Shown in pieces: positions 4,714-21,284 of a stretch of 63,646 nt of DNA. The notes under the pieces are model-generated. The model did not search any database and was not told where the DNA came from. It worked only from the letters and a program-made list of their open reading frames with translations. Where the stretch lies: the NCBI GenBank assembly GCA_964356315.1, contig CAYHHA010000006.1, positions 1 to 63,646 of the forward strand, in the 5' to 3' direction. The position numbers and the translations under genes are program-made. The DNA is from an uncultured Gammaproteobacteria bacterium. GTDB lineage: Bacteria > Patescibacteriota > Microgenomatia > UBA10105 > UBA927. Numbering within the stretch: the stretch's first letter is position 1; every line of letters begins with the position of its first letter.

Positions 4714-4799
4714 ACTCCCCATTCGGGAGTAGCTTGTGTTTTAAAACGAATTCCAGTGAAGAACAGTATAAGTATACTGTTTTTAGCCTCAAAAAGCAA

Positions 4800-4845: not shown

Positions 4846-4896
4846 ATAAAAATGCAGAATACATGTAGTGCTTAAAAGTTACTGAAGCTAATCTGT

Positions 4897-4926
4897 CTAC
4901 CGCTTCTGCCGTAGAAATGCGGGAAT
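4897..4926. other. att site: orphan copy of the ftsZ 3' end (junction between elements A and B)
   Basis: The reverse complement reads ATT CCC GCA TTT CTA CGG CAG AAG CGG TAG, which is IPAFLRQKR-stop. 4904-4926 is identical to 21262-21284. No ftsZ body follows it. Confidence 0.85.
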
Positions 4927-5214
4927 TTATAGGACAAGGATTATTTTCAGCTTCAATACTATCAATGGCACGACATATAAAAACGTACGTTTCAAACCCT
5001 TCAATGAAGAGTGTAACAGAGTAATAAATATTTACAAGCGTTAAGACTTCTTCTTTTCATTTAACACGAACATATGAAACGCATAAGCTAATTATGATAT
5101 CTAATCAACAGAAACAATCCCATATGAAAATAGCAAATATAGATCTCCAATGAAGTAAGAGTCTTTAATTACTTACGAATAAAGGATTTATGTAAAAAAA
5201 TTAGTTGTTGAAGC

Positions 5215-6222
5215 TTACTCTTCAGCTATTTTCGTCAGAGGGATTTGACAATATGTACAATATTTTTTATATGACATAAATTTTCTTTTACAGTTTAAAC
5301 AGACTAATACATCATTTGTATTGCTCGGCTCGTTCTTGTCTAACGATTCATACTTAAGCTCCTTTAAGTCATCAAGTTTTTTCTTTAAATCCTCGTGCTT
5401 AAAACTATCACTTTTCAATAAATCATCTAATCTAGATTGTTCTTCTTTTTTTGCAAGCAATATCGCTGGCTTAGCATAATTTAAATAGTAATATAACCCT
5501 TTGAGAAACTGATATGCGCCAAACAATATAGGCCCATACAGGACATAAAACTGCTCTCCAGAAGGCGTGTAGATATAACTAATATACGTAAATACAGCAC
5601 CTCCAAGCGGCCACAAAGATGACCGAAACAATGATTGTTTCAACTCTTTGTTGAGTTTTTCAGAGGGAAGTATAGGATTACCTCGTGACCAAATAAATAA
5701 TATAAATGAAATTATTCCAGTGATTAGAAGTAACCAAACAAAGGAAGAACCATAGTCAACTAAATTATAATGTTTATTATATTCATCAATAATTTTGTCT
5801 CTATCTTCTATTGAATGATTATATAAACTTGTGAAGGAATCGGTTATTTTAGCTTCTTCACCCTTCTCAATTGAAGATAACAATATGTTTGCGTCAGCGC
5901 CCAGTAGTTTACTACTATTTGCGAATTTCTTAAGCAGAGCTTTTGTTGATTCATCGGTCTCATTTGTAGAAAGATTGTCAAAATATTTAGATGACTCAAT
6001 AAAATAGACTTGAAATGAGTTGGTTTCTTCTACTACTGCCTGCAAATCTTCTTTTGAATCATCTAAATTGTTATAATGCTTAAGTAAATTGGTAATTACA
6101 TCAGTATCTTTACCTATTCGTTCGCCAATCTCCCCAGATGCAACGGCAAAAACCGGTTTAAATGGAATTGCAAGTAAAACCAGAAGAAGAATTATGATCA
6201 CAGATTTTACAATTACTTTCAT
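5215..6222 (-). CDS. Membrane protein: signal peptide, helical exo-domain, 3 TM segments, cytoplasmic coiled coil and C-terminal zinc ribbon
   Basis: Features: hydrophobic N-terminus, TM segments after residue 160, K/E/D/L-rich stretch, and C-terminal CLNC-x13-CTYC. Its start abuts the stop of the M48 gene with a 1-nt gap. Confidence 0.6.
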   Translation of the reverse strand: MKVIVKSVIIILLLVLLAIPFKPVFAVASGEIGERIGKDTDVITNLLKHYNNLDDSKEDLQAVVEETNSFQVYFIESSKYFDNLSTNETDESTKALLKKFANSSKLLGADANILLSSIEKGEEAKITDSFTSLYNHSIEDRDKIIDEYNKHYNLVDYGSSFVWLLLITGIISFILFIWSRGNPILPSEKLNKELKQSLFRSSLWPLGGAVFTYISYIYTPSGEQFYVLYGPILFGAYQFLKGLYYYLNYAKPAILLAKKEEQSRLDDLLKSDSFKHEDLKKKLDDLKELKYESLDKNEPSNTNDVLVCLNCKRKFMSYKKYCTYCQIPLTKIAEE

Positions 6223-6223
6223 A

Positions 6224-6991
6224 TCAAATATTATTAATTATATCTTTATTATAGGCATAATACTGGATGAGAGTGTATATCCGTTTAACGGAATAGGGGT
6301 GATCGGATAGAGTTTCAGCGACTTTTTCAAAAGGGTCATCAATATTATGAACTTGTTTAATAAAATGATTTATATTCATTTTCTTATAAGTTTTTTGACC
6401 AACCGTGATTTTCATTAATGCTGATAAAGCGTGATCAATATTACCAGAGCAGTACAGTCCAACCTTATCGGCTGAATATTCTGCGAGGCGACTCCAAAAA
6501 CCGAATATATAAGTTGCACCAATAATTTTATTCCCAGCAGGACTTATAAGGGTGTTTATCAGATGATGTTTAAATACAACATGACCCATTTCATGACCAA
6601 TCACAAAACATAATTCGTCATCATCTAAAACATCTAATAAACCGGATGTGATGATAATTGATGGATGTATTAAACCCAGTGTATAAGCGTTAAGTTCTGG
6701 GCTTTGGATAATATACAATTTTGGTTTTGCGATTCCGAGTTTTGTAGCGTTTTGCTCTAAAATTTTATGCATAACTGGTAGGGATTCCTCATCAACAGAA
6801 AGAGCATTACCAATAAAACTTGCGTTCATCAATACTATATAGATAATCACCCCTGCTGCTAATACAAAGGGTAGGTAATTATGCAAATCAAATGTAAGAT
6901 ACGCTATTCCAATAGAGATTAATATCCCAAGGATTAAAAAAATGTTTTCATCATTAGACTGCAAATGTTTTAAATTTAATGCCCTTTCCAT
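6224..6991 (-). CDS. M48-family (HtpX/Ste24-like) zinc metalloprotease, membrane-bound
   Basis: HEMGHVVFKHH (HExxH) motif, two N-terminal TM segments and a downstream EYSADKVG glutamate region typical of M48. Confidence 0.75.
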   Translation of the reverse strand: MERALNLKHLQSNDENIFLILGILISIGIAYLTFDLHNYLPFVLAAGVIIYIVLMNASFIGNALSVDEESLPVMHKILEQNATKLGIAKPKLYIIQSPELNAYTLGLIHPSIIITSGLLDVLDDDELCFVIGHEMGHVVFKHHLINTLISPAGNKIIGATYIFGFWSRLAEYSADKVGLYCSGNIDHALSALMKITVGQKTYKKMNINHFIKQVHNIDDPFEKVAETLSDHPYSVKRIYTLIQYYAYNKDIINNI

Positions 6992-7024
6992 AATAGTAGT
7001 GCAAAAGACTTACTTTTTACCGTC

Positions 7025-7705
7025 CTAATGCCCTGACAGTATTCGCATAGAATTTGAACCCATCAAAAATTTTAAAACTCTACTGTTAAGTCTGTCAGCT
7101 GTCGGATGAAATTGATTCAATAATGCAAAACTTTCATCAAAAATATTTTTTGATGTTGAATACGATTCAAGCTGCAACAAGTTATAATATGCCTTATTAC
7201 ATTCTGATACTTTACTTTTAATGATGTCTACATAAAACTCATCAAAGCAGCTAGTAATTAGCTTATCAGAAATTGCATTTAATTTATCCTGTAAAAGATT
7301 GGTTCTTGGCACAGTTACAGTGTAATACAGTGATAATTTTATCTGAGTTTTCTGATCTAACTGTGCTATATATTGCAACGGCTCAGTAGACTGCTCCCAC
7401 AAATCACGTGTGTATTTACGAAAAGTATGAAAATTATTTATTCCCTTATTATTTTGTTGTGTATCATTATTTTCGGTTAGAACGTTACTTGCCTGTAGCA
7501 TATTTGATGCTATTTCATTCTCAATCGCTTCAAGTATTCTTTGTTTTGAGATTTGCTCTTGGACTTGAAGTGTAAATATATTAACCAATAAACTAAATAG
7601 AGCACCAGCAATTAACCCTCCTAAAAAATTATCTACTCTACTTTTTTTAATTAACTTAAAGGGGCGTTGCATTATCAAAAATATATTAGAAAATATTCGT
7701 TTCAT
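7025..7705 (-). CDS. Hypothetical single-pass membrane protein, first gene of the M48 operon
   Basis: ATG at 7705 is preceded by GGGAGG six nt upstream. One TM segment (FLGGLIAGALFSLLVNIFTL) is followed by a helical domain. The ORF extension to 7762 covers a terminator hairpin and is rejected. Confidence 0.6.
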   Translation of the reverse strand: MKRIFSNIFLIMQRPFKLIKKSRVDNFLGGLIAGALFSLLVNIFTLQVQEQISKQRILEAIENEIASNMLQASNVLTENNDTQQNNKGINNFHTFRKYTRDLWEQSTEPLQYIAQLDQKTQIKLSLYYTVTVPRTNLLQDKLNAISDKLITSCFDEFYVDIIKSKVSECNKAYYNLLQLESYSTSKNIFDESFALLNQFHPTADRLNSRVLKFLMGSNSMRILSGH

Positions 7706-7733
7706 ATTTGCCTCCCATTTGAAAAAATTAACA

Positions 7734-7757
7734 CAAAAAATCCGCTCAGGGGCGGAT
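7734..7757 (-). terminator. Intrinsic-terminator-like hairpin in the leader of the M48 operon
   Basis: The minus strand reads ATCCGC-CCCTGA-GCGGAT followed by TTTTTGTG, about 25 nt upstream of the SD/ATG at 7705. There is no upstream minus-strand gene for it to terminate. Confidence 0.5.
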
Positions 7758-7782
7758 ATCAATATCTATTATATCACTATTC

Positions 7783-7803
7783 ATAGTCTAATGATTAGAC
7801 TAT
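7783..7803. promoter_or_regulatory. Perfect 10+1+10 palindrome (operator candidate) in a divergent promoter region
   Basis: ATAGTCTAAT-G-ATTAGACTAT, flanked by direct ATCACTAT repeats (7773-7780 and 7802-7809). It lies between the M48 operon and the DUF2726 gene. Confidence 0.5.
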
Positions 7804-7867
7804 CACTATACCCAAACCACTACAATACATCATAATTTAGTAATAATCACTTTGATTATATTCATAT

Positions 7868-8425
7868 ATGGTTTATAGTGACTATATGCCTATTTTAGCT
7901 AGCAATATGACATTCTCCCTGCTCATGGCATTTATTATTGTCCTTGCCTATATAGCCATCCATTACCGGGATAAATACAATAAAACTCAGGATGAACTTC
8001 TGAGCTTAGCTGACAAAATGGACTTCTTTCAAAAAAAGCCTTCAATCATGCGTCGCGACGAGTGGTTATTTTATGAAGTCATCACGAGACTATACGGAGA
8101 AAAGTATACGATATTCCCTCAAGTTCGGTTGTCAGACATAATTACGGTGAAAGAAAATATAAAAGATCACGATAACCTTTATCGGGAAATTGATCACCGT
8201 TCTATTGATTTTGCGTTCTTTGATAATGAGTCTTTATCCCCTATCCTCGCAGTTGAATTAAACGGGGCATCTCATTTCCAAATGAATCGTAAAAATAGAG
8301 ACCAAAAAATATCAAATATTTTAACAAAAGCGGGAATTCAATTTATAGCAATTCCTGTTCAAGAAAAGTATAATGAAGAAGAAATCCAAAAACTAATTAA
8401 TCTTTTTCTTCTTAAAACAACCTAA
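7868..8425 (+). CDS. DUF2726-domain protein (restriction-endonuclease-like fold) with N-terminal TM anchor
   Basis: The pattern E..FY......Y.IFPQVRLSDI...IDFAFFD....PILAVELNGASH....R..RD......AGI matches the DUF2726 signature. Residues 8-32 are hydrophobic. Confidence 0.7.
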   Translation: MVYSDYMPILASNMTFSLLMAFIIVLAYIAIHYRDKYNKTQDELLSLADKMDFFQKKPSIMRRDEWLFYEVITRLYGEKYTIFPQVRLSDIITVKENIKDHDNLYREIDHRSIDFAFFDNESLSPILAVELNGASHFQMNRKNRDQKISNILTKAGIQFIAIPVQEKYNEEEIQKLINLFLLKTT

Positions 8426-8441
8426 TCATCATTTAAGATAG

Positions 8442-8885
8442 CTATAAGGACGAGTAATTTTTATTTAATTTCTCACCGTAAACTTGATACGTTTTTATCA
8501 TTTGTTGATATTTTTTATTATTTTCCATATGCTCGTTCAACGAGAGCTTACCGCCCTCAGCTTTTTCTTTAAGTGCATTCAAAAGGATAAATAGCATGTA
8601 CACTGTTTCAGTTAGAGCTTTTGTATACTGAAACAGACTTTCGGCAAACTCTTTCTCTTTAGAATTACTCTCCTCATTCTTTAGCTTATCAAGCTTAATT
8701 CTCACATCTCTAAGTTTTTCAAATAAAAAATAGGCTTCTCCTGTTAATCGCCTAAAGTTAACTCTTCTAAACAAGCTCCAAAATGTTCCGGAACTTTTTA
8801 AAAATTTATTATGAAGATCAATATACTGAGTTAGTAGATTATGGACACCTAATGACTCATTTTTTAATTGCTCTTTAATATCCAT
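8442..8885 (-). CDS. Hypothetical all-helical protein
   Basis: 147-aa ORF rich in K/E/L, last in the minus-strand run 11545 to 8442. No motif recognised. Confidence 0.45.
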   Translation of the reverse strand: MDIKEQLKNESLGVHNLLTQYIDLHNKFLKSSGTFWSLFRRVNFRRLTGEAYFLFEKLRDVRIKLDKLKNEESNSKEKEFAESLFQYTKALTETVYMLFILLNALKEKAEGGKLSLNEHMENNKKYQQMIKTYQVYGEKLNKNYSSL

Positions 8886-9016
8886 AATGCGATTGAATAA
8901 TTTGTTGATTTACTTCAATGTAATACATAAAAAATTGCACCACTTTGATTTATCATAATATTTTTTATTGTTTCATAGATTTGATAAACTTTTTCATTAT
9001 TCTCTATTTTATACAA

Positions 9017-10459
9017 TTATTCTTCTACATTCATCACAACAGCTTGTCTCATAAAACTTATAATAGAATTATCAACAATAATATCTTTGCGTACTACTTC
9101 TCTTTTTAAATATAACCCTTCAAGACTCTTACATCTACTAAGAGCAACGTAAGCTTGACCGTGTGCAAATGCTCCATCTCCCAGATCCACAATGACACTA
9201 CCATAAGTATGCCCCTGAGATTTATGGATTGTTATTGCCCATGCAAGGCGCAATGGATATTGTGTAAATGAACTTACTACTTCTTCTTCTATTTTTTTAT
9301 TGATTTGATTATACGTGTAACGAATTTTACTCCATGTTTCTCGCGATATTGGGTATATAATCCCATCAATCTTAACTTTTATTTCGTCCCGGCTTAGCGA
9401 ATCTATAATCCCGATTGTTCCATTTACCCATCTTTTTTCTTTATCGTTTTTCAGCAACATCACTTGTGCTCCTTTTTTTAGCTTTAATATTTCCTCAGTT
9501 GGAAACACCGACTCTTCTAAAATACCAGTAATATCTGCTCTATACTCAAATACTTTACCTGGTGTTTTTTCCAAATGAGTACTATTTATCGTGCTTACTG
9601 ATTGATTAGTAGAAGCAAGTGTAAGCACATCTTTTTCCGGAAATTCCAAATTTGCACGCACGTTCAATTCCTGTAAATGCGTCTCTTGAACATCTCCTTT
9701 CCTAACCGAATTTAAAATAGATATAAATGCTTCATCTTTTTGTCTAAAGACGTTATTTAGTTCGTATGGATCAAACTTAGCATTCTTCCATACATGCGCA
9801 TTAAAAAAGTAATACCCACCGTTGTTATCAGCAAAATATTTATGCAGCTCGGGATCATTTACTACCGGAGGTAATTGATACAAGTCACCAAACATAATAA
9901 TTTGAACACCTCCAAATGGTTCACTACTATTTCTTGCCTGACGCAGCCTTTGATCTATCGCATCCATTAAGTCTGCTCGTACCATTGAAATTTCATCAAT
10001 CACAACGGCATCAACATGTTTTAATAACGCCGCAACTTTGTAGTTAATTGGCTCCAAGCTGTTTGGAGCTATAAAAGATGGCGGGATTCTGAACAACGAG
10101 TGTATTGTTTGCCCTCCTACGTTTAACGCAGCTACCCCGGTTGGGGCACAAACGATTACATTTTTATCTGTATGTTGTTTAAAATATTGTAATAATACGG
10201 ATTTTCCTGTGCCTGCTTTCCCAGTAATGAAGTAATGACTGGTAGTATTCTCCAATTTACCTAGTATCTTCTTCTGCTCGGCACTTAAAGTGATATTTGA
10301 TACATCAATTTGATGAATATTGAGTTTCGGTCTAGGCTTAATATACGTTCCGCTTGGAGTATATGAAGAAAATGATTTATTAGATCGTTTATTATTTGAT
10401 GAGTTCGCCGCAACTATTAACAATACAATTACTGCAATTACAAATAATTCCATTTTCAT
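9017..10459 (-). CDS. PIF1/RecD-family (SF1B) helicase with N-terminal hydrophobic anchor
   Basis: Motifs: Walker A GKAGTGKS, Walker B VVIDEISMV, LYQLPPV, TIHKSQG and AYVALSRCK. Residues 4-21 (ELFVIAVIVLLIVAANSS) are hydrophobic. Confidence 0.85.
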   Translation of the reverse strand: MKMELFVIAVIVLLIVAANSSNNKRSNKSFSSYTPSGTYIKPRPKLNIHQIDVSNITLSAEQKKILGKLENTTSHYFITGKAGTGKSVLLQYFKQHTDKNVIVCAPTGVAALNVGGQTIHSLFRIPPSFIAPNSLEPINYKVAALLKHVDAVVIDEISMVRADLMDAIDQRLRQARNSSEPFGGVQIIMFGDLYQLPPVVNDPELHKYFADNNGGYYFFNAHVWKNAKFDPYELNNVFRQKDEAFISILNSVRKGDVQETHLQELNVRANLEFPEKDVLTLASTNQSVSTINSTHLEKTPGKVFEYRADITGILEESVFPTEEILKLKKGAQVMLLKNDKEKRWVNGTIGIIDSLSRDEIKVKIDGIIYPISRETWSKIRYTYNQINKKIEEEVVSSFTQYPLRLAWAITIHKSQGHTYGSVIVDLGDGAFAHGQAYVALSRCKSLEGLYLKREVVRKDIIVDNSIISFMRQAVVMNVEE

Positions 10460-10464
10460 TGATC

Positions 10465-10486
10465 ACAGATTATATTAATAATCTGT
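10465..10486. promoter_or_regulatory. 9-bp inverted repeat immediately upstream of the helicase start
   Basis: ACAGATTAT-ATTA-ATAATCTGT, flanked by ATCACAG direct repeats, in the 78-nt gap between the 10538 stop and the 10459 start. Confidence 0.35.
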
Positions 10487-10537
10487 CAATCACAGTAATT
10501 TTACTACTTTTTTGCACAATACCCTATTTTCTATCTA

Positions 10538-11545
10538 TTAATCATAATCTTTCATTAATTTACAAGGGCATCCCAAATATTGCCCTTTACAACGAGGGCA
10601 CTGCTCTGCATCACAACCTCCAGAGTGATATTGATTCATAAGAGCATAACAATCATGACACGGGTCTTTGGCTAAAATTTTGGAATCGTAAGGTATCCCT
10701 TTCTCATCCACATATGGGTTGCCATTTTCGTCTGTCCAACGTTCAAATCCGAATTTTATTCTTCTATATCTCATACCATGCAATTTTGTTGTTTTTTCTT
10801 TCTGGGAGTAAGAAAAATCTTCAAAAAATTGAAAATAATTGTAAGTCTGAAAAATCATCCCTTGTAAATCTCTGCTTGAATAAACACTTTTCAGCCTATG
10901 GAGACCTTGAGTTCTTGCGTAATGAATTTTATTGAATAAGTCTGCTGTTTCGCTATCCATTCCAATTCCAATTGCTTTGGCATTATCCACAAGTATATTA
11001 AAACTAGGACTAGACGATCCTGGTTTATGTTTAATTGTAATTAACAAAAATCTTGTGAGTAAACTATCGCAGTCCTGGATAAATTCCCAATCATTTAATA
11101 ATTTAATATCCCATTTTCTCATTAAGATTTCATATTCGTGTGAATATGTATTCTGAAAATCACCTAGAATATATTTTCTATCTGATATTGGCTTTCCAAC
11201 GATATGTCTAATCAAATACCGGCTTTGCGGATAATTAAATTGCAGTTCAATCAATTTTTGAAATATAGGGATAATTACATTGCGTACAATATCAAGACTA
11301 TCGCCTTTAAGTATTGAACACTTGTAATAATAAAGGCCTTTATTTAATATCAATTCTTGATAGAGAGTGTCTATACTTACGCCGGGGGCTCCATCCACTC
11401 TTATAACGTAATTTCCCTCTTTAATTGTTTCGTAATTAATATTTACAGGATATTTTCTCCCAACACGTTGAAGGAACTGAAGAAAACTTATTGTTTCTTG
11501 ATGTAGCCTTTTTTTTGTTCTAATTTTTAAGTCATAACCTGACAT
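10538..11545 (-). CDS. Hypothetical protein with possible HEPN-type Rx4H motif and a C-terminal Cys/His-rich module
   Basis: YARTQGLHRL fits Rx4H within a predicted helical region. The C-terminus DPCHDCYALMNQYHSGGCDAEQCPRCKGQYLGCPC has 8 Cys. The ATG at 11545 is preferred over the TTG at 11569. Confidence 0.35.
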   Translation of the reverse strand: MSGYDLKIRTKKRLHQETISFLQFLQRVGRKYPVNINYETIKEGNYVIRVDGAPGVSIDTLYQELILNKGLYYYKCSILKGDSLDIVRNVIIPIFQKLIELQFNYPQSRYLIRHIVGKPISDRKYILGDFQNTYSHEYEILMRKWDIKLLNDWEFIQDCDSLLTRFLLITIKHKPGSSSPSFNILVDNAKAIGIGMDSETADLFNKIHYARTQGLHRLKSVYSSRDLQGMIFQTYNYFQFFEDFSYSQKEKTTKLHGMRYRRIKFGFERWTDENGNPYVDEKGIPYDSKILAKDPCHDCYALMNQYHSGGCDAEQCPRCKGQYLGCPCKLMKDYD

Positions 11546-11617
11546 AAGCTGAATTATAATCCTATACAAAATCTCATGCTAGTAAGAATGGTATTAAAAA
11601 TTAAGTGAGATAAATGT

Positions 11618-11730
11618 CGCACAATCTTTGTTTTATGACGTCATATCGTGGCTACGGCCCTTATAATTATTTTCATTTGACCGATAGTAAATGACGCTGG
11701 CTTCAAATCGTCTAAAAAGAGGATAATAAC
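11618..11730. repeat. Mosaic intergenic repeat, copy C (inside element B)
   Basis: Aligns with copy A over its full length. It is followed by the local tandem duplication AGACTTATTGATATT x2 (11731-11770). Confidence 0.55.
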
Positions 11731-11843
11731 AGACTTATTGATATTACTGAGACTTATTGATATTTTGCTTGCTCCGATTGTGTAAGAAAAGACACTCGGA
11801 GTCTATAGTTTCATTACTATTTGATAGGAAAAGCAAGCGGATA

Positions 11844-12323
11844 TTACTCACTACGTAAAAGGTTGAATAACGGGATGCAATACCATTTTGCAAATATTGA
11901 CCCTTCGCAAGATCGGTGAATGAATACAGATCTTGAAACATAAAATTCCTTTTCAAGGGAACTTTCATTAGTTGAAATATTAAAAAATTGTCCGTTTTGA
12001 AATCCAAAAGTAGCAGACTTATCGTCGTACTGACATTTCCAGTTTTTTCTGTCTACAACCGCACAATCTTTAATCAAATCTGGAGAAAATCCTCCAACCC
12101 AGTGGAGAACATCTTGTCTTTCTACATTTGGTTTATAATGGCTCATTCGTAACGAGAATAGTGTTTTCCCTGGACATGAATTATATTCAGGATTAACCTC
12201 ACATTGAAGCGGATACGCGATTATTTCACCTTTAAGAAAGGAGAAGTCTACCATCGCCAAAATATACAATATTCCGTAAATGATAACTACTATTTTTATT
12301 AGATTAATCAAACGGTTTAACAT
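11844..12323 (-). CDS. Small secreted or membrane-anchored Cys-containing protein
   Basis: 159-aa ORF with an N-terminal hydrophobic segment and six Cys in the mature part. Divergent from the nuclease gene. Confidence 0.5.
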   Translation of the reverse strand: MLNRLINLIKIVVIIYGILYILAMVDFSFLKGEIIAYPLQCEVNPEYNSCPGKTLFSLRMSHYKPNVERQDVLHWVGGFSPDLIKDCAVVDRKNWKCQYDDKSATFGFQNGQFFNISTNESSLEKEFYVSRSVFIHRSCEGSIFAKWYCIPLFNLLRSE

Positions 12324-12465
12324 AATATATTTATAAAATTATTATACCACTCTAGCTCAGTTTTCGGATAACCTGACTGAATTATTAGACTTTCCTAAAA
12401 TGCGATACCTAAAACGAACTCATATTTTTAAGCATCTATGCTTCATAAGCGTATAATACCGCTAT

Positions 12466-13332: not shown

Positions 13333-13407
13333 ATAGTACTTTTTTCCTCATATTTGCGTTCATATATAAATTTCTTCTATGCTTAATTAAGGCCATTATT
13401 AATCAAT

Positions 13408-13584
13408 ATGAATAAATCACATCTAAAACAATTACATCATCAGATTGATAAACTCTTGCTTGAAAAGAAATTGGAATCAGAACATCAATATTTTCCAATA
13501 CTTGAGATGACACCAGAAGAAAAACTTGCATGGCCAAAAAACTTACCATTTCCAATCTACGCTGGGAGAAGCACGATCAGATAA
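13408..13584 (+). CDS. Possible small ORF (58 aa)
   Basis: An ATG-to-TAA ORF below the track threshold fills the 290-nt gap before 13624. There is no motif support. Confidence 0.2.
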   Translation: MNKSHLKQLHHQIDKLLLEKKLESEHQYFPILEMTPEEKLAWPKNLPFPIYAGRSTIR

Positions 13585-13623
13585 TTAAACGTTATACCCG
13601 CCATATATACCGGTAACTAAGTT

Positions 13624-13989
13624 ATGAAATGCACTAAAATAAAGAACAATGGAACTCAGTGTGGCGCTAACGCCATGAACAACTGTGATGTATGCTTCCG
13701 GCATGACAAAGTAAGCAAGGCGAAAGCTATAAATGCATCACAAAAAGGCGGGCATGCAAATAGACAATATATTCGTTTAGGCTCTCCTACCGTATTAAAA
13801 ACACCAAAAGATATACAGAATCTCATGGAACTTGCTATTAATAGTCTGTGGATTGGTAAGATGCCGTCAGGTAACCCCGCGGGATCTCTAGGCTATCTAT
13901 CTAAGATATTTCTGGAAGCTTATGAGAAAAGCGAGCTTGATACAAGGATGGAAGCCATAGAAAAGCGACTAGAGCAAGCTAAAATATGA
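13624..13989 (+). CDS. Hypothetical protein with N-terminal Cys/His cluster
   Basis: 121-aa ORF. CTKIKNNGTQCGANAMNNCDVCFRH resembles the zinc-binding N-termini of small phage/plasmid DNA-binding proteins. The C-terminus is helical. Confidence 0.45.
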   Translation: MKCTKIKNNGTQCGANAMNNCDVCFRHDKVSKAKAINASQKGGHANRQYIRLGSPTVLKTPKDIQNLMELAINSLWIGKMPSGNPAGSLGYLSKIFLEAYEKSELDTRMEAIEKRLEQAKI

Positions 13990-14015
13990 TTACAATTCAA
14001 ATTAAAATGATTAAA

Positions 14016-14732
14016 CTACTTATCTTTCATCACTTGCTCATTTAGGTTTTTTACTAGCCCTTTCATTATAAGGTCCGCTCTTTCCTTCAGCGGTAACTTG
14101 TGAGGCGTTATCCAAGGCTTATTTGTATAGGGGTTTATTGATACTTTCTTTGGCGGTAATGTAACTTTAATAAGTGTCTCAAGAGCAATGTGCAAATCAT
14201 CGCATAGCGGATTTTCTATCCAAGTGTTTTGGATTTCAGGAATAAGCTTTTGGTATCTTTGGATCGTATCCTCCTGACTTGCATTAAATTTACTAAAAAC
14301 ACTAGTTCCATTCGTAGCAATATCATCATTTAGCTCAGTCAGATTGTGAAGTACGTCAGCAGACTTCACGAGTAATGATCCATGAGTCATGTGTTTGATA
14401 TGCTCAAACGCAGATAGTTTTCGCTCCATCCAAGGAAGAGCCTTATCCTGCTCCGTCACATCATCAACCATTCGTGCAACCTCACTATTAAACGTCTGTT
14501 TAATCATCTCTTTTGTGATAGTCCCATATGGTTCGCAGTCTTCAATGGTGTCATGGAGTATTCCGGCTGCGATGATATTTTCATCATCCGTTACACGGCT
14601 AAGAATTATTCCGACCGCTAGTGGATGAGTAACATAGGGAACATCCGTTCCTTTTCTTCTCTGCTTAACATCAAGCTCATGGGTTTGGATGGCAAATTGA
14701 ATTGCCTTATGAATAAAGGTTGTATATATCAT
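14016..14732 (-). CDS. HD-domain (RelA/SpoT-type, HD_4) phosphohydrolase; small alarmone hydrolase candidate
   Basis: YVTHPLAVGIIL...AAGILHDTIED (H...HD...D metal ligands), followed by the SpoT-like helical region. No synthetase domain. Confidence 0.7.
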   Translation of the reverse strand: MIYTTFIHKAIQFAIQTHELDVKQRRKGTDVPYVTHPLAVGIILSRVTDDENIIAAGILHDTIEDCEPYGTITKEMIKQTFNSEVARMVDDVTEQDKALPWMERKLSAFEHIKHMTHGSLLVKSADVLHNLTELNDDIATNGTSVFSKFNASQEDTIQRYQKLIPEIQNTWIENPLCDDLHIALETLIKVTLPPKKVSINPYTNKPWITPHKLPLKERADLIMKGLVKNLNEQVMKDK

Positions 14733-14805
14733 ATTTGTATCTTTCTATTGTAACTGTATTTACTTCTTTATATATGGCGTGGCAATACTGACTGGACTTC
14801 AAATC

Positions 14806-15024
14806 TCAGGAAGCATCAAACGCTTCCTTAGCTGTATCAAATGTTCTACCAGAGGATAATATGTCCATCATAGGCCCATCTGAACCTTTAGCTGGACGGC
14901 TTGATCCATCAGGGAAAACTATTAAGAAAACAGATTTTCCTCCAGGCTTACTAAATGTAGTTAAGTCTACGAAAAAGACCTTGTCTTCAAAACGGATAAA
15001 TTTTGCTTCTGAAAATGCATTCAT
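14806..15024 (-). CDS. Hypothetical small protein (72 aa)
   Basis: ATG at 15024 with GGAGG eight nt upstream. It lies between the DUF3883 and HD genes on the same strand. Confidence 0.45.
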   Translation of the reverse strand: MNAFSEAKFIRFEDKVFFVDLTTFSKPGGKSVFLIVFPDGSSRPAKGSDGPMMDILSSGRTFDTAKEAFDAS

Positions 15025-15166
15025 ATTTTTCACCTCCTTCCGTGATTATCTACTCAAACCTTGGGAATTATTTATCTGAAGAATTGAAGTTTTCTGAGGT
15101 CCTCTTACACTCTTACTGTAGCATACAATTCGTGATTGAGCAAATATTGTATACATCGTATTAATA

Positions 15167-16396
15167 TTAATTAGGTTTGCTAGATACAATATATTGTACT
15201 GGAGTTATTTGATACATCTCTAAAACCTGAGAGCTTGAATCAATCCTGAGTTGTGGTGCTTCATTATCATCATCAGAATAAATATATAATCTATAAATAA
15301 CAGCATCCTCACTGTGTTCTTTTAGAAACTCTAACTCATTTCTTGAGATGTAGAAAGGTGATGCTAGAGATGTAGTTGTGCTTTTCACCTCTATGTATTT
15401 TTCTCTGCCATCTTCAAAAAAAGATAAGATATCATACCCTAATCCATCCCCGTGTTTCTCGGCTACGTCGCAAACCTTATCTGCTAGATCAATTCTATTA
15501 ATTGATTGAAAATATTTTTGCTCTAGTGCGACTGCAATCTCCTGACCTTTCCGACCTGTTAATATTCTTTTATTATTTATTTCTTCCCAATTATCTATTT
15601 TTCTTGCAGTTCTATATAACTTTTCAAGCGGAATCATTTTTACTATTTCTTGTTCCTGTAGTTTGGAAAAACTGCGAACAAAATTATGAACAGAACGAAG
15701 ACCCTCACTCTTCTTCGTTGATTGAAGGTTATGATTTGTCTTACGCTTTTCTAGGTATTCTTTATATCTTTGTAATTCCCAATTGGAAATATTATTTGAT
15801 ATAAAAACAGAATTCATAGTTGATAGTTCTTCTATCAATAACGAAAATTCCGATAGTTTATCCTCAAATTGTTGATTTCCCGACCTTTTTTTATATAGAT
15901 TTTCCTCAAAATACTCTTCTAGTTTATATTGATAATATTTGCTAGCCGCACTTTCAAATAATTGCACCTTGTCGCTTGATTCATTTTTCAATTCTTCTAT
16001 ATTCTTTTTTATCACCTCAATAGCTTTTTTAGTTCTACCGAACTTCCCAAAACTAAAAATGTTTGATATAAGGTCAATATTTAGATCATGTAAAAACACT
16101 GCAGGAAATATCGCAATAATTATTGAGCCCAATAGATTTTCTAAAAGATTATTAACAAAATTTTCAGAATTATAAAATAATAGTGATATACCCAATAATG
16201 ATAGACCGTATGAAATATAAAATGGCGTACGTAGCAACTCCTTATTTGTTTCTAACTTGGTTATCTCGCCTTCTAAACTGGAAAGTCTCACTCTGTAGTT
16301 TTTGTATACGGATATATCTAAGTGATATTCTTCTAGTGTTGGCTCATGTAGTCCTGAGGCATTGTTATCCATGTTTTTATCATTCAGTATATCCAT
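15167..16396 (-). CDS. DUF3883-domain (PD-(D/E)xK-like) protein with two TM segments and a coiled coil
   Basis: The C-terminal GRKGQEIAV..E........GYDILSF...G...YIEVKST......FYISRNELEF......YRLYIY matches the DUF3883 pattern. Hydrophobic segments lie at about residues 60-105. Confidence 0.7.
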   Translation of the reverse strand: MDILNDKNMDNNASGLHEPTLEEYHLDISVYKNYRVRLSSLEGEITKLETNKELLRTPFYISYGLSLLGISLLFYNSENFVNNLLENLLGSIIIAIFPAVFLHDLNIDLISNIFSFGKFGRTKKAIEVIKKNIEELKNESSDKVQLFESAASKYYQYKLEEYFEENLYKKRSGNQQFEDKLSEFSLLIEELSTMNSVFISNNISNWELQRYKEYLEKRKTNHNLQSTKKSEGLRSVHNFVRSFSKLQEQEIVKMIPLEKLYRTARKIDNWEEINNKRILTGRKGQEIAVALEQKYFQSINRIDLADKVCDVAEKHGDGLGYDILSFFEDGREKYIEVKSTTTSLASPFYISRNELEFLKEHSEDAVIYRLYIYSDDDNEAPQLRIDSSSQVLEMYQITPVQYIVSSKPN

Positions 16397-16462
16397 CTAG
16401 GCATACAAAAAAGCTCCCCGTTGGTGATAGCTTTCGCCACCCATATCCCTTTCGGAACACGA

Positions 16463-16504
16463 CCTTGTCAGGTACTCCAAACGAGGAGCTTACTCCTGAC
16501 AAGG
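16463..16504. other. Long hairpin in a divergent intergenic region (structured leader or ncRNA candidate)
   Basis: CCTTGTCAGG (16463-16472) pairs with CCTGACAAGG (16495-16504), with an inner CTCC/GGAG stem. On the minus strand, two GAAA-capped mini-hairpins follow before the DUF3883 start. Confidence 0.4.
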
Positions 16505-16657
16505 TTTCTTATGCCATGCCCAACAACTTACGTTGTAGAGTTTAGGCCAATATTAAATTGTATTTATAGTCTACTACAACTTGGAAAACACATAAACAAT
16601 TGATTTAATGACATCTATACGCTCATATAATGTTAAAATACAAGTAGCCATAAGAAT

Positions 16658-17464
16658 ATGAAGAAGATAAGTTCATTAATTGACCCACAGGGTCAAGTCT
16701 ATTACCCGACGGTTACTGAGGATCTCTCAAAAACACTATTAAAAGAAGCTCAAAAGATTACCCGTCATAACGAATCGTTACGTCGTAATGATCTTATACG
16801 CCAACAAAATAATAAAAATTATAGGATTTCAAATTCAAAAATTGATAAACAAGTTCATGCCATTAGAATTATTATTGAAAAAGCTGAGGAAGCATTGTCT
16901 CCCACAAGTCCAATAGAATACGGAGATTCTTTCAGTATTGACTATTATAACTTTAACTTTGAGGATAGATCAGATGCGAGAGTTCTTTTTGAAAATTTTC
17001 TGAATAAACTTAAAAATGCTCATTGTTTTATAAATTGGTCAAAAAACCCTTACAGGAGTGAAGCGGTTTATATATTTAAAAAAATAGATATACAAAAATT
17101 GAGAATGTATGCTAGCTCATTAAATATTGGTTCTAAAGCCAACATTTTAAAATTCTCCAGAAGCACCGGTTATGTAATATTTTTTGATAAAGATGGAATT
17201 AAATATGAATCAAAATTTAAGACAAATACAGACTACTATAAACTTCTTAATTATCTAGTTAAACAGCCTCACATCAAATTTCCATTTGATGAGTTAGCCG
17301 ATCAGCTAAACAAGCCTAAGTCAATGGATCAAGGATCAGGCGATGAAAAAAGAGTTAGAGATACAGTTGCATACATAAAGAAAAAATTGAAGTATCGTGG
17401 TAACGATTTATTTATTTCGGATTACGGTTTTGGATTGAACTGCGATGTTTTCTTAATAGGCTAA
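16658..17464 (+). CDS. Putative transcriptional regulator with C-terminal OmpR/PhoB-type winged helix
   Basis: The C-terminus VRDTVAYIKKKLKYRGNDLFISDYGFGLN resembles the recognition helix and wing of the trans_reg_C domain. The N-terminal 200 aa are unassigned. Confidence 0.45.
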   Translation: MKKISSLIDPQGQVYYPTVTEDLSKTLLKEAQKITRHNESLRRNDLIRQQNNKNYRISNSKIDKQVHAIRIIIEKAEEALSPTSPIEYGDSFSIDYYNFNFEDRSDARVLFENFLNKLKNAHCFINWSKNPYRSEAVYIFKKIDIQKLRMYASSLNIGSKANILKFSRSTGYVIFFDKDGIKYESKFKTNTDYYKLLNYLVKQPHIKFPFDELADQLNKPKSMDQGSGDEKRVRDTVAYIKKKLKYRGNDLFISDYGFGLNCDVFLIG

Positions 17465-17629
17465 CTCAATATTCCTCACTATTCCTCATTTTGATAGCAA
17501 ATTAGCTTCACAAAATTCTTTCACTTCGGCATTTTTCCTCTCAAAAATATAGGAAGATTAGAGTAGAGAAACGTAACTCAATGCCCGGGAATAACGAAGA
17601 TATCGCTATAAATTTAATTTCACATAAGT

Positions 17630-17791
17630 ATGCAACATATTGAAGAAATTATACAGGCAAATACCAATTTTCATCCGGCTAGTCGTACTCAAAAATTTAC
17701 ACGTATGAGTATTTGTAAATATTTTGATCATTCTAGACGACGATATATAGATAAAACGAAAAAACAATTTATTACATTGTTTTTTAAGTAA
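17630..17791 (+). CDS. Possible small HTH/excisionase-like ORF (53 aa)
   Basis: An ATG-to-TAA ORF below the track threshold. MSICKYFDHSRRRYIDK loosely resembles AlpA/Xis-type HTH. Weak evidence. Confidence 0.2.
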   Translation: MQHIEEIIQANTNFHPASRTQKFTRMSICKYFDHSRRRYIDKTKKQFITLFFK

Positions 17792-17813
17792 ATCTTATGA
17801 AGAACGAAGAAAT

Positions 17814-17996
17814 ATGGACAATTCAACAATTGAAATCAAACTACTAAAACCAGCGTATATACCGATTATGTGTCCTGTTTGTCACGGTCACAAAACAGTT
17901 AATTGGGGGAAAGAAATGTGTGGAGTTTGTTACGGATTAGGGTATCTGAAGATACCACCAGAAGAAGGAGATAAAAATGATAACGCTTATAGATAA
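17814..17996 (+). CDS. Small DnaJ-type zinc-finger protein
   Basis: Contains CPVCHGHK and CGVCYGLG (CxxCxGxG x2). Overlaps the next gene by 20 nt. Confidence 0.55.
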   Translation: MDNSTIEIKLLKPAYIPIMCPVCHGHKTVNWGKEMCGVCYGLGYLKIPPEEGDKNDNAYR

Positions 17997-18675
17997 ATCA
18001 CAAGGATATGTCATCATGTGGCGATCAATAGTAAATACACCGTTATGGTCAAATCCGAAATTGGAACGAGTATTCCACTGGGTTATGTATCGCGCAAATT
18101 GGCAAATGGAACAAATATTTCCAACTACAGAAAAGGTCAGTTTACACCCTGGGCAATTCATCACTTCATACCCCCACGCGGCAATAGAATTAAAGATGTC
18201 AGTAGGAACCATAAACACATACATAAAACTCTTAAAAGCTGAAAGCATAATTGAAATCAACTCCACGAACAAATATACAATTGTGACGGTCTTGAATTGG
18301 GATGAGTTACAGAATCCTGAAAGGACAATTGAAAGCAAACCGAAAACAAAACGAAAACAAACTGAAACAGACAATACAATAAATACAAAAAATACATCTT
18401 CTAGCATCCCAGTAAAGGAACTAGTCGCACAGTTTAATGCTCTCTATAACACGAAGCTTCTAGGATATGGGAAACAGGGTCATGCCTTAAAAGTCATTCT
18501 AGGCTCCTACACCGAAACCGAAATGTGGGCCTGCGCTGAATGGCTGGCTCACGATCCTTTTTGGAAGTCTAAAGGTTTTGACTTCACAACGATCCAATCA
18601 CAAATAGCCAAATACAAAATGTCTCTCGGAAGCGAGAGAAAACAGGAGGTGTACCGTGATGCAAAAAGTATCTGA
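17977..18675 (+). CDS. Replication initiator-like wHTH protein (phage/plasmid type)
   Basis: The N-terminus GYVIMWRSIVNTPLWSNPKLERVFHWVMYRANW is the typical opening of phage replication/DnaD-N-like wHTH proteins. GAAGGAG SD at 17964-17970. It precedes a helicase-type ATPase. Confidence 0.55.
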   Translation: MITLIDKSQGYVIMWRSIVNTPLWSNPKLERVFHWVMYRANWQMEQIFPTTEKVSLHPGQFITSYPHAAIELKMSVGTINTYIKLLKAESIIEINSTNKYTIVTVLNWDELQNPERTIESKPKTKRKQTETDNTINTKNTSSSIPVKELVAQFNALYNTKLLGYGKQGHALKVILGSYTETEMWACAEWLAHDPFWKSKGFDFTTIQSQIAKYKMSLGSERKQEVYRDAKSI

Positions 18676-19474
18676 AGTTATTTCACTTATAGAAACAAAT
18701 AAAGAGAACATGGAATTTCTTAAAACAGGATTCCCTACACTTGACGAAAAACTAGATGGAGGACTTCTCCGGAAAGAGCTAGTCATTTTGGGAGGACAGA
18801 CTGGAATCGGGAAAAGCTATATAGCTTCACAGATCATGTTCAATATAGCTCGCAGTGGCTTTAAAACCGCCTATTTTTCGCTAGAAATCTCAAATGAGAT
18901 GATTGTTTCACGACTGTTGGGATCCATTGCGAATATAAAATCTACTCGCATCCGCTCAGGCCTGAGCTCTCTAACAGAATTGGAGCAACTGATAGCCGCT
19001 AAAGCAAAGGTTCAAGCGTATGAGGATTACTTATCATTTTACGATGACACTTATTCAATAGATGTTATTAAAAGTGAAATTATTGCGAATAAATACGAGT
19101 TTATAATTGTTGATTTTATCCAAAACGTAAACGCACCCGGAAGCGATGAGTATTCTCGCCTGTCACTCGTAGCTTTAGAGCTACAAAAAATAGCAAAGTC
19201 TGCTAATTGCTGTGTATTTGCTTTATCCCAGCTTTCAAATCGGGTAACTCGGGAAGGAATTGAAGCTACAACACTGGAATATAAAGGCTCTGGAAGTATT
19301 CAGGCCGCATGCGATCTTGGCTTTTTGATAGAACGCTCACTATTCAACGATGGCAAACACGATGACGAGATCAAACTTGAGTTAAAGAAAAATCGTCGTG
19401 GGATTGGGTATCTCACATTTCATCTCGTATTTAAACACCCAGGAGGATGGATATATGAACAAACGGAAAGATAA
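18656..19474 (+). CDS. DnaB C-terminal-domain-like (RecA-fold) ATPase
   Basis: TGFPTLDEKLDGGLLRKELVILGGQTGIGKSYIA (Walker A), IIVDFIQ (Walker B-like) and SQLSNR. It lacks the DnaB N-terminal domain. AGGAGG at 18644-18649. Confidence 0.7.
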   Translation: MMQKVSEVISLIETNKENMEFLKTGFPTLDEKLDGGLLRKELVILGGQTGIGKSYIASQIMFNIARSGFKTAYFSLEISNEMIVSRLLGSIANIKSTRIRSGLSSLTELEQLIAAKAKVQAYEDYLSFYDDTYSIDVIKSEIIANKYEFIIVDFIQNVNAPGSDEYSRLSLVALELQKIAKSANCCVFALSQLSNRVTREGIEATTLEYKGSGSIQAACDLGFLIERSLFNDGKHDDEIKLELKKNRRGIGYLTFHLVFKHPGGWIYEQTER

Positions 19475-19709
19475 TTTAATTTTTTCACTCTGTAGACGAT
19501 TATGCGAAATCCTAGAAGAGAGGCATGTGATCTATTTGGCTCAGCGTCCGAATTTACGGTCGCATTATTCAGAACAAGATCAGGCGTTATTTGCCACTGT
19601 AACCAAAACTGAAGACGAAATTGCTCGTGAAGAAAAAATAATTCTTGAGGAATTGGAAAGTCTTCAGAATATAAATGAACATGCTGAACTCATTCAAATT
19701 CAATCATGA
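19455..19709 (+). CDS. Hypothetical small helical protein
   Basis: ATG at 19455 with AGGAGGA seven nt upstream. Overlaps neighbours at both ends, consistent with an operon. Confidence 0.45.
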   Translation: MNKRKDNLIFSLCRRLCEILEERHVIYLAQRPNLRSHYSEQDQALFATVTKTEDEIAREEKIILEELESLQNINEHAELIQIQS

Positions 19710-20002
19710 ATTACTCATTCAGAGTTATACAAAACAACAGAATCGTACAAAGATGCCAAACGCATTCAATACGACGTTTTACGAAAAAGCTAGGCACGAT
19801 AAATTGGGAAAATGGGGTGATTAAAGTGAATCTACGAGTGAACTATGGCAGATACAAAAATATGTATGGGAAGTTTATTAATTTCTATAACGATGGAGAA
19901 TACGAAACAAAGAAAGATCTATTGCAGGCATTCAAGGCATTTATTGAAGTTGACAAAGCTAGTACTGAAAACGTTCCTGCGAGGAATATGTTATCGGAGT
20001 AG
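19706..20002 (+). CDS. Conserved integrase-adjacent small protein (paralog of 3325..3627)
   Basis: See 3325..3627. Position and orientation relative to the integrase are the same. Confidence 0.6.
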   Translation: MNYSFRVIQNNRIVQRCQTHSIRRFTKKLGTINWENGVIKVNLRVNYGRYKNMYGKFINFYNDGEYETKKDLLQAFKAFIEVDKASTENVPARNMLSE

Positions 20003-20018
20003 CTTGTAGTTTGAGAAT

Positions 20019-20041
20019 GGAGGTTAGATTTTCTAACCTCC
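20019..20041. other. Conserved hairpin between the X gene and integrase B
   Basis: GGAGGTTAGA-TTT-TCTAACCTCC, a perfect 10-bp stem. Confidence 0.5.
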
Positions 20042-20058
20042 ATAAATGAAACTAAAAT

Positions 20059-21072
20059 CTAAATTATTGATAAAGAAAAACCCAATTTATTTCCCTCTTG
20101 CTTCAAGCTAAAATTTAAACGCGAATCATTATCCAAATGAAGTCCCTCAATAGTTTCTTTCACAAGTCGCAATATCTCCTGTGGATTATTTTGCAACCTG
20201 ACCATAGGGTGGCGCATCGCGGCACGCTCTAATGTTTTATCAGCCAAGTGCATGTACGTGGAATATGTCGTTTGAATATCTTTATGACCAACTAACATGG
20301 CCACCTCAGTAATCGGAACACCTGCTTCCAGCAAATGAGTTATATAACTATGCCTAAAATTATGAGGAAATGCCCGCTTCGTTATCCCAGCCTCTTTTGC
20401 TCTCCGTTTTAAGTCTCCACTATATTCAGTAACTTGTACTTGCTTCCCCGATGAATTGCGAAATACCCGATCATCTGACTTTCTACCTTCCAGTAGCATT
20501 TGTAATTTGCTTTTAAGAGGTTCTGCGAAATAGGCTGTTCTATTATCATTTGTCTTTGTGTTCACAAATATGGCTTTTCCTGCACTGATATCCACGTGTT
20601 TTACAGTTAATTCAGCCGCTTCTGCGTATCTACACCCTGTATACGCTAAAAACATACTCATTGTCCTGTACATATCATCAAGAAAATCGCTGGATTTTCC
20701 ATGAAATTTCCCATACGAAAGAGAGGTGGTAAGTATTCGTTCTATTTCCTCATGGGTGAATATGATGATATCGGCTTTCGTTTTCTTGAATGACTTGAAT
20801 CCATCAAAGAAATCTGATGGCATTCCCCTATCTCTGCAGTATGAGACCAAATGGTGAAACGCAAAACCATACGTATTGAGTGAATTATTTTTTAATAGTT
20901 TTTCGTCTTTGAGGTACAAGAAAAATTTCTCAACATTCTCTTTCGTTAACTCCTTATCTTGAAACCATTTAGCAATGAGGCCGAGACGACTAAGACAATG
21001 ACGGATACTCAATGGCGCGAGCCCGAGTTTAATTGTAATATATGAATCAAAATCGTTCTGATCAATCTGCAT
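20059..21072 (-). CDS. int: Tyrosine recombinase/integrase (element B)
   Basis: It carries the same catalytic signatures as integrase A (TGCRYAEA, HNFRHSY, LVGHKDIQTT, YSTYMH). It ends 182 nt from the ftsZ stop codon. Confidence 0.9.
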   Translation of the reverse strand: MQIDQNDFDSYITIKLGLAPLSIRHCLSRLGLIAKWFQDKELTKENVEKFFLYLKDEKLLKNNSLNTYGFAFHHLVSYCRDRGMPSDFFDGFKSFKKTKADIIIFTHEEIERILTTSLSYGKFHGKSSDFLDDMYRTMSMFLAYTGCRYAEAAELTVKHVDISAGKAIFVNTKTNDNRTAYFAEPLKSKLQMLLEGRKSDDRVFRNSSGKQVQVTEYSGDLKRRAKEAGITKRAFPHNFRHSYITHLLEAGVPITEVAMLVGHKDIQTTYSTYMHLADKTLERAAMRHPMVRLQNNPQEILRLVKETIEGLHLDNDSRLNFSLKQEGNKLGFSLSII

Positions 21073-21254
21073 ACTCCCCGATTGGGAGTAGCGTGTAGTT
21101 ATAAGAAGTCCTGCGAGGAACAGTGTTTATTATACCAAATTTGAGGCTAAACAACAATCTCTCAACACGAACTATTTACACAAAATTACTCCCTTTTGAA
21201 GAGCTATGAAACTCAGAATGTATATGTCATGCAGTAGAAATTGAAGCTAAAATC

Positions 21255-21284
21255 CTATCGTTTCTGCCGTAGAAATGCGGGAAT
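21255..21284. other. att site overlapping the functional 3' end of ftsZ
   Basis: The reverse complement reads ATT CCC GCA TTT CTA CGG CAG AAA CGA TAG. 21262-21284 is identical to 4904-4926. Confidence 0.85.

Follow-up and report, generated by a model that had tools for sequence, protein, structure and literature searches.

Mobile elements that integrate without disrupting their target are known from the 3' ends of several protein-coding genes, including rpsI, rplL, rpmE, rpmG, and trmE (PMC5704250) as well as icd (PMC6379469), and their tandem stacking, decay to integrase-less remnants, and composite movement have been documented (PMC5704250). The locus described here lies at the 3' end of the cell division gene ftsZ in a metagenome contig of 63,646 nt (GenBank CAYHHA010000006.1; ENA ERZ4201063, NODE_382; about 8x coverage), the whole of which is referred to as the window. 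From comparison of its sequence with related loci, the region very probably represents a tandem array of site-specific integrative elements attaching in the last ten codons of ftsZ, two of which, elements A and B, carry a tyrosine integrase each. The original prediction for this DNA considered a protein-coding division gene unusual as a reusable attachment (att) site; coding 3' ends reused in this way are well known from the genes listed above, and the part of the claim that stands is that ftsZ is a new target. No report of ftsZ as an attachment site was found in the searchable full-text literature, whether in combination with integrase or attB or with Patescibacteria, Candidate Phyla Radiation, or Microgenomates. 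The target, the host group, and the integrase clade are thus new here; the integration principle is already known.

The array resembles IMESag-rpsI, the integrative mobilizable elements (IMEs) in rplL, rpmE, and rpmG, and SGI1 in trmE (PMC5704250) in that a single tyrosine integrase is combined with the 3' end of a conserved essential gene, in that one of the flanking direct repeats holds the end of that gene and leaves it undisrupted, and in the presence of phage-type replication genes (replisome organiser or helicase loader) alongside toxin-antitoxin or other cargo. It differs from them in its ftsZ target, its host, a patescibacterium of the Microgenomates, its distinct integrase clade, and in that no relaxase or mobilisation gene has been found. 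A second parallel is offered by e14 and phage 21 in Escherichia coli icd, where, according to the account of Hill et al. (1989) cited in PMC6379469, insertion occurs in the coding 3' end, a replacement 3' end is provided, and the displaced pseudo-3' end comes to lie at the far side. In that account the duplicated piece measures about 160 bp with residues slightly changed, e14 being a defective prophage and phage 21 a phage, whereas the piece duplicated here is exactly 30 nt long (nine codons and the stop) and the elements are replicative islands. The accretion of several elements at one att site, in composites that can move, recalls the ICESt1/ICESt3 group, and the loss of the integrase with retention of both att copies recalls the cis-mobilizable elements (CIMEs), both as presented from Pavlovic et al. 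(2004) in PMC5704250; the counterparts of CIMEs here are a unit called C and the inserts of six related loci (L114, L119, L141, L154, L176, and L178). The ICESt1/ICESt3 elements of that source are conjugative and were demonstrated experimentally, in contrast to the array here, which lacks conjugation genes and is reconstructed from sequence. As in islands and prophages that target tRNA or tmRNA genes, a short host-conserved sequence is chosen and a replacement is carried, so that the gene survives. Elements of the IMEX type, which rely on host Xer at dif, were rejected as a model, as the present elements encode their own integrase and their target is the coding end of ftsZ.

Anatomy of the ftsZ locus

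The FtsZ C-terminal peptide DIPAFLR is conserved and serves as the docking site for FtsA and other partners. In a scan permitting up to three mismatches, the window contained exactly two occurrences of the 23-mer TTCTGCCGTAGAAATGCGGGAAT, at 4904-4926 and 21262-21284 on the same strand, and 100 shuffles of the sequence gave 0 matches. Extended to 30 nt (4897-4926 and 21255-21284), the copies are identical at 28 of 30 positions, and both read IPAFLRQKR-stop on the minus strand, the two differences being synonymous (AAG CGG versus AAA CGA). The right-hand copy, c1 (21255-21284, minus strand), consists of the last nine codons and the stop of ftsZ and is the ftsZ-proximal att copy at the junction with element B. 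The gene is complete at 21255-22499, its body (21285-22499, minus strand) showing Tubulin and FtsZ_C domains and the full protein comprising 414 amino acids; directly upstream lie ftsA (22574-23875, minus strand), which is second to last in a conserved cluster of cell-wall and division genes, and the remainder of that cluster. The left-hand copy, c2 (4897-4926, minus strand), is an orphan tail at the junction of elements B and A, with stop codons and no FtsZ body upstream of it. GC content is 0.31-0.40 over positions 1-21000 and 0.37-0.46, mostly above 0.40, to the right of there. A tRNA or tmRNA gene as the integration target was ruled out, no such gene being present in the window or in 14 related loci.

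Both integrases are intact and 75% identical to each other. The integrase gene of element B, intB (20059-21072, minus strand), encodes 337 amino acids matching PF00589 and the phrog_1 integrase family (E 1e-41), and that of element A, intA (3697-4713, minus strand), encodes 338 amino acids matching PF00589 (E 1.2e-31). The catalytic-residue motifs GCRY, HNFRHS, GHKD, and STYMH are kept in both and across 20 homologues. The integrase genes start 182 nt (21072) and 183 nt (4713) from the respective tail copies, and the core-to-integrase arms of the two elements can be aligned with each other. The original prediction had derived much of this anatomy from the window itself, namely the direct 23-mer repeat, the two 30-nt segments encoding one peptide with only synonymous changes, the right copy as the true ftsZ end and the left as an orphan, and the integrases at 182-183 nt with alignable arms, all of which the present comparison bears out; the 23-mer, with its two copies in the window, also proved not to be a dispersed repeat, the prediction having named its presence at many unrelated loci as a finding that would speak against it.

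Element B, of low GC content, extends for 16,328 nt between c2 and c1 (4927-21254). Element A occupies 1-4896 of the window and continues 1,034 nt past position 1; neither a third tail copy nor a distal arm was found within window positions 1-4000, with seven mismatches allowed and with a peptide search as well, and both lie beyond the window on L224, a contig assembled from a sister sample (ERZ4201064). This contig overlaps the window over 3,916 nt (window 1-3916) with 0 mismatches and reaches 6.8 kb further left, its position 6788 corresponding to window position 1. It contains a third copy, c3, ATCCCCGCATTTCTACGGCAGAAACGATAA, which again encodes IPAFLRQKR-stop and follows a distal arm nearly identical in sequence to B's, which gives element A a length of 5.93 kb. 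Just after c3, two to three direct repeats of CTATTTCACACCCGGTGTGTGTAA give an iteron-like appearance. Between c3 and a fourth copy, c4, both within L224 66-5753, lies unit C (5.6 kb), which has no integrase but keeps the distal arm of the family and carries toxin-antitoxin and other cargo genes (MBOAT, HepT/MNT, Phd, and Fic). With both att copies kept and the integrase lost, unit C is a remnant of the cis-mobilizable type. The fourth copy, ATCCCCGCCTTCCTTTGACAGAAGAAATAG, reads IPAFL-stop-QKK-stop, with an in-frame stop and an R-to-K change, and it is similar, in sequence and at the beginning of its flank, to the native ends of ftsZ in relatives. From ftsZ outwards, the array accordingly consists of B (16.3 kb), A (5.9 kb), C (5.6 kb), and what appears to be a decayed native tail.

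The tandem stacking of two elements proposed in the original prediction therefore stands, but its extent was underestimated, since at least a third, integrase-less unit lies to the left of the window. The proposed order, A before B, does not hold as a deduction: insertion of B into the ftsZ-proximal site of A, insertion of A into the distal site of B, and arrival of a composite all lead to the same final structure, from which the order cannot be inferred. That element B supplies the end of the present ftsZ stands as well, although the last two codons and stop given in the prediction are a lower bound only. If c4 is the native tail, everything in the present gene from the third base of the Ala codon onwards derives from B, and by this comparison and that of the att pairs of other loci the element probably supplies about seven codons, F-L-R-Q-K-R-stop.

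Nature of the repeat and architecture of the attachment site

The repeat was compared in 18 pairs of neighbouring tail copies. In the stretch between the Ile codon and the stop, both included, all 18 of 18 pairs are identical at the first two positions of each codon, except in the codons of the variable last two residues, while synonymous positions (third positions and the first positions of Leu and Arg codons) are identical in only 6-13 of the 18; immediately past the stop codon, identity falls to about 5 of 18, the random level. This codon-periodic identity means that it is the encoded peptide, the last nine residues of FtsZ, that defines the repeat, and it bears out the earlier suggestion that the elements carry a coding mimic of the FtsZ tail. 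The target being a protein-protein docking peptide and not an RNA, conservation between copies is codon-periodic instead of base-for-base, unlike at tRNA and tmRNA sites. In single-element pairs the copy of the element encodes the same peptide as that of the host, including the lineage-specific last two residues (QKR, QRN, QRS, or NRN), which sets these pairs apart from the icd case; a few array copies (L163, L154, and L138) differ in these two residues.

The cores are flanked by a hexamer in two orientations. The hexamer (GAAGCT or its complement) starts 27 or 28 nt ahead of the core at about 22 distal junctions, and at about a dozen occupied proximal junctions the complementary hexamer stands 5-9 nt past the stop; the two hexamers of one element are always of opposite polarity, and in the window they occupy 4949-4954, 4884-4889, and 21243-21248. 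In the distal arm of B (4927-4956, minus strand), TGTCCTATAA (ftsZ sense) directly precedes the core, as it does in many elements, A and C among them, and GAAGCT lies 28 nt before the core (4949-4954). The proximal arm of B, from core to intB (21073-21254, minus strand), has AGCTTC (ftsZ sense; 21243-21248) 6 nt past the stop, and that of A (4714-4896, minus strand) has the same hexamer at 4884-4889. The centre of the dyad formed by the inverted hexamers falls on CCCGC, in the Pro-Ala codons, a stretch common to most attL/attR pairs, and strand exchange most likely occurs in or next to it.

Both proximal arms end in a hairpin at the integrase start (4713-4731 in A and 21072-21090 in B), whose 7-bp stem, TACTCCC ... 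GGGAGTA, overlaps the ribosome-binding site and start codon and which recurs in locus L017 at about 4575-4600. As the loops vary but the stem is kept, translation of the integrase may be regulated here. The stretch between ftsZ and intB yielded no terminator-like site, so that transcription could read through from ftsZ into the integrase gene.

Occupied and empty ftsZ ends in related genomes

Searches with the integrase returned 304 homologues at E <= 1e-10; the best 119 non-self matches listed are 64-77% identical, and all of these that carry a source name come from Patescibacteria or Gottesmanbacteria. A scan of one genome per species, guided by an alignment of 20 integrases, yielded 14 loci from Levybacteria, Gottesmanbacteria, and other Patescibacteria, in every one of which (14/14) a homologous integrase lies within about 250 nt of an ftsZ tail copy. 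Wherever the flank is available (12/12), the integrase is directly next to the ftsZ 3' end, in nine cases in the same direction, as in the window, and in three convergently; the remaining two loci lie at contig ends and have a tail copy next to the integrase. The genes upstream are syntenic between loci (mraY, ftsW, murG, ftsQ-like, ftsA, and ftsZ), while the DNA beyond the integrase has almost no gene families in common. In L003, L005, L009, and L016 the inserted DNA ends 5.6-7.5 kb away at orphan IPAFLRQ(R/K)x-stop copies that lack an FtsZ body, L008 is an array with three orphan tail copies, and in all five loci the target frame is intact with flanking copies. Eight of the loci (L004-L009, L013, and L015) are recorded as 'uncultured Gammaproteobacteria', although their FtsZ, FtsA, and integrases are 60-75% identical to those of Gottesmanbacteria or Levybacteria; by this similarity the titles look like placeholder mislabels.

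An integrase-independent scan of metagenome contigs with a degenerate DNA pattern for the tail gave 80 loci. Of the 28 ftsZ ends that have 1.3 kb or more of downstream sequence, 21 are empty, two have a family integrase, and five lack such an integrase and show a distal tail copy at 1.6-4.9 kb. The empty ends include the closest FtsZ relatives of the window FtsZ (73-76% identical). An empty site of the window's exact organism was not found, as both assemblies with this exact FtsZ carry intB beside ftsZ. The sibling elements stacked in the ftsZ 3' end that had been proposed from the window alone thus belong to a family seen at 14 loci, with orphan copies bounding 5-9 kb of variable cargo, and the empty ftsZ sites in related genomes that the original prediction had suggested looking for exist (21 of 28 ends).

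Inserts without a family integrase between the ftsZ end and an orphan copy (1.6-4.9 kb) are found in L114 (514-5374), L119 (1083-2636), L141 (2497-5577), L154 (2798-6536), L176 (197-1907), and L178 (9586-11569). Their open reading frames (ORFs), with translations judged by eye only, resemble NYN-domain, Fic/Doc, RelE-type toxin-antitoxin, and regulator-like genes. The idea that they carry a different recombinase was dropped, their translations showing no integrase-sized family member, and from their sequence these inserts look like integrase-less, CIME-like remnants.

Proposed mechanism and alternative explanations

In this model each element encodes a tyrosine integrase and carries its own att site, the latter holding a 30-nt copy of the FtsZ C-terminal coding sequence (IPAFLRQxx-stop) flanked by the inverted hexamer GAAGCT / AGCTTC, 28 nt before and about 6 nt after the core. 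Recombination of this site with ftsZ, with crossover at CCCGC, would join the ftsZ body to the version of the tail carried by the element, so that the essential gene stays intact, and would move the native tail to the far end of the element. Each integration would regenerate a usable site, and further elements could therefore stack. Several observations weigh against this model. No circular or excised junction was seen, the data being assemblies, and all sequences come from metagenome assemblies; no excision helper (directionality factor) was recognised by Pfam or PHROG matches among the scanned ORFs, and the small protein encoded beside the integrase has no PDB structural match at E <= 0.001 and no recognisable fold. 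The crossover position is based on comparison of copies. Neighbouring copies in L008 (c1/c2), L114, and L176 have no identical run of at least 6 nt and thus are not direct products of one recombination, which points to a more complex array history, by composite transfer or later mutation.

The absence of an observed excised form and of an excision helper would also fit a fossil array, produced by the same integration mechanism but now fixed and incapable of excision, its repeats being relics and its integrases kept for some other reason or not yet decayed. The decayed c4, the integrase-less unit C, and the presence of intB next to ftsZ in both assemblies with this exact FtsZ agree with such a state. 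It is nonetheless unlikely: intA and intB are of full length with intact catalytic motifs, c1, c2, and c3 are intact, with 23 identical nucleotides shared by c1 and c2, and most related ftsZ ends are empty, with different cargo in every genome, a pattern which indicates ongoing gain and loss in the family. We infer that the elements of the window may likewise be active at present. Within the preferred model of site-specific attachment at ftsZ, it is possible, though somewhat unlikely, that B and A, perhaps with C, were acquired together as a prior stack, the outermost sites of which served for its excision and integration. Streptococcal elements are documented to be transferred as stacked composites (PMC5704250), and the copies of L008, which pair c1 with c3 and c2 with c4 and not with their neighbours, would fit composite movement, but nothing in the window distinguishes this from stepwise insertion, as the final structures are identical.

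Two further explanations were weighed. The homologues are called XerD in some databases, Xer proteins are among the closest solved structures, and the gene is always next to ftsZ, all of which could indicate a conserved Xer-like host recombinase that normally resides behind ftsZ, with the tail repeated by local duplication. Given that such a gene is absent behind 21 of 28 related ftsZ ends, that it occurs in both orientations and in two or more copies per locus, and that the DNA after it is unrelated low-GC cargo with a second tail copy as its boundary, this explanation is barely credible. An artefact joining A and B through the repeat, from different cells with one element each at ftsZ, might be suspected in a metagenome contig at about 8x coverage, the more so as a second assembly of the same FtsZ (Logan ERR3856787; ftsZ followed by intB) breaks where A and B are similar. 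The exact repeat that they share is only 23 nt long, however, element A, its distal arm, and c3 recur in the independent sister-sample assembly without a mismatch, and tandem arrays of the same kind occur in the unrelated assemblies L008, L163, L154, and L017, which makes misassembly very improbable.

Gene content of the elements

Element B carries a replication module of a DnaD-like helicase loader and a DnaB-like helicase (17977-19474, plus strand), and its cargo, likewise assigned by profile matches, spans 5215-16396 and includes an M48 peptidase, a DUF2726 protein, a PIF1/RecD-like helicase (9017-10459), an SNase-type nuclease (12466-13332), an HD protein, and a NOV_C protein (15167-16396). 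Several of the cargo proteins, among them this helicase, the nuclease, and the NOV_C protein, match candidate defence families (PADLOC C3a212 at 4e-49; PDC-S36 at 9e-34). Beside the integrase lies the gene for a small conserved protein of 98 amino acids (19706-20002, plus strand) with few homologues, found in element A (3325-3627), L003, L005, and L108, whose structure is predicted with confidence (pLDDT 80). Among the scanned A and B ORFs, Pfam and PHROGs revealed no virion or packaging genes, the only PHROG matches being to integrase and replication families, and no relaxase, coupling protein, or type IV secretion genes. A prophage and an integrative conjugative element were rejected on these grounds, the phage of L017/L022 discussed below having, by contrast, distal tail and tail-fibre proteins.

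An RNA of the LOOT family (Rfam RF03000) is predicted in element B at 16426-16548 on the minus strand, and two other ftsZ-integrated elements contain one, L003 at 12124-12234 and L016 at 7391-7500, both on the plus strand. The three score 69-82 bits against a threshold of 46, and no match was obtained in the other 21 loci scanned. A terminator-like run of T residues forms the end of every copy, and unrelated ORFs begin 20-30 nt further on. To our knowledge, no host or function of the LOOT RNA family has been known; here it appears to be cargo of Microgenomates elements.

Further repeated sequences occur within the elements. A and B share a repeated intergenic segment about 80 nt long (43-120, 1088-1203, and 11616-11692), positions 43-81 and 11616-11654 being 87% identical and followed by a second conserved block with CCGATAGTA; it could be a shared promoter, operator, or small RNA. 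In element A, three tandem 30-nt repeats (2988-3064) lie inside an ORF of 132 amino acids (2930-3328), where they encode an Asn/Thr/Ser-rich low-complexity stretch.

A related phage contig

A 5.9-kb relative of A and B, with an integrase 65% identical, is found on the IMG/VR contig IMGVR_UViG_3300027835_000014 (34.7 kb; L017 1-15603, L022, and L024), where two IPAFLRQRN-stop copies bound it and its neighbour is a tailed phage encoding a distal tail protein and tail fibres. This phage has a distant integrase of its own (31% identical), directly next to which lies a mimic of 13 residues, DDWDIPAFLRQRN-stop. There is no ftsZ anywhere in the 34.7-kb contig, and a scan of viral contigs found no FtsZ relatives; the contig has no terminal overlap and is not circular, and so gives no proof of a free element site. 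Judging from these sequences, a temperate phage seems to use the same ftsZ-tail site, possibly with a satellite-like neighbour. In a comparison with phage satellites (PICI- or P4-like), the size and gene content of A and B are compatible with such elements, and no capsid-redirection or interference genes were recognised.

A second tail copy behind ftsZ

In roughly a fifth of the ftsZ ends of these bacteria, a second tail copy (PAFLRQxx-stop) comes after the gene. In 18 such modules, empty ends included, this untranslated copy starts at CCCGC, 20-60 nt past the ftsZ stop (a chance of about 0.4% per site). Examples from the pattern scan, with the tail on the plus strand, are L156 1559-1640, L170 7827-7910, L143 901-980, L154 2768-2850, L145 167-245, L122 2630-2705, L131 482-600, L008 18101-18185, and L010 9783-9860. 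Nine of the 18 second copies encode the exact PAFLRQxx-stop of the host, with the lineage-specific last two residues, and differ from it at 4-7 synonymous codons each, amounting to 48 synonymous and 0 nonsynonymous differences over the nine; the other modules are partly decayed. The first tail pairs with the spacer as a hairpin that shows covariation (TTTTTA/TAAAAA versus CTTCG/CGAAG). In L010 the element sits in the second copy, and the tail of ftsZ itself is untouched. An improbable reading is that the host maintains the second copy as a decoy or safe landing site which diverts integrases from the essential frame, the ftsZ tail being contested between host and elements; alternatively, it might be a native tail displaced by a mini-insertion, a duplicate site native to the host, or the scar of two-core elements. 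Ribosomal bypass from the first to the second tail was dropped as an explanation, as the resulting protein would be identical.

Implications

With this array and its relatives, a widespread integrase clade with a precise 30-nt target becomes defined in the Microgenomates (Patescibacteria), for which the literature searched contains no earlier description of a mobile-element family with a defined site. We know of no genetic tools for Microgenomates bacteria; the development of an integration vector usually begins from a short conserved attachment site and the integrase that matches it. The ftsZ 3' end is also a place to look for islands in these genomes, given the defence-type cargo, the temperate tailed phage, and the orphan LOOT RNA associated with it, and the codon-periodic repeat clearly illustrates that what a mobile element copies can be a protein motif and not a nucleotide sequence. 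For the bacteria themselves, which have tiny genomes, the codons for the FtsA-docking peptide of FtsZ can come from mobile DNA, and where the native tail has decayed, as here, cell division may depend on a sequence borne by an element.

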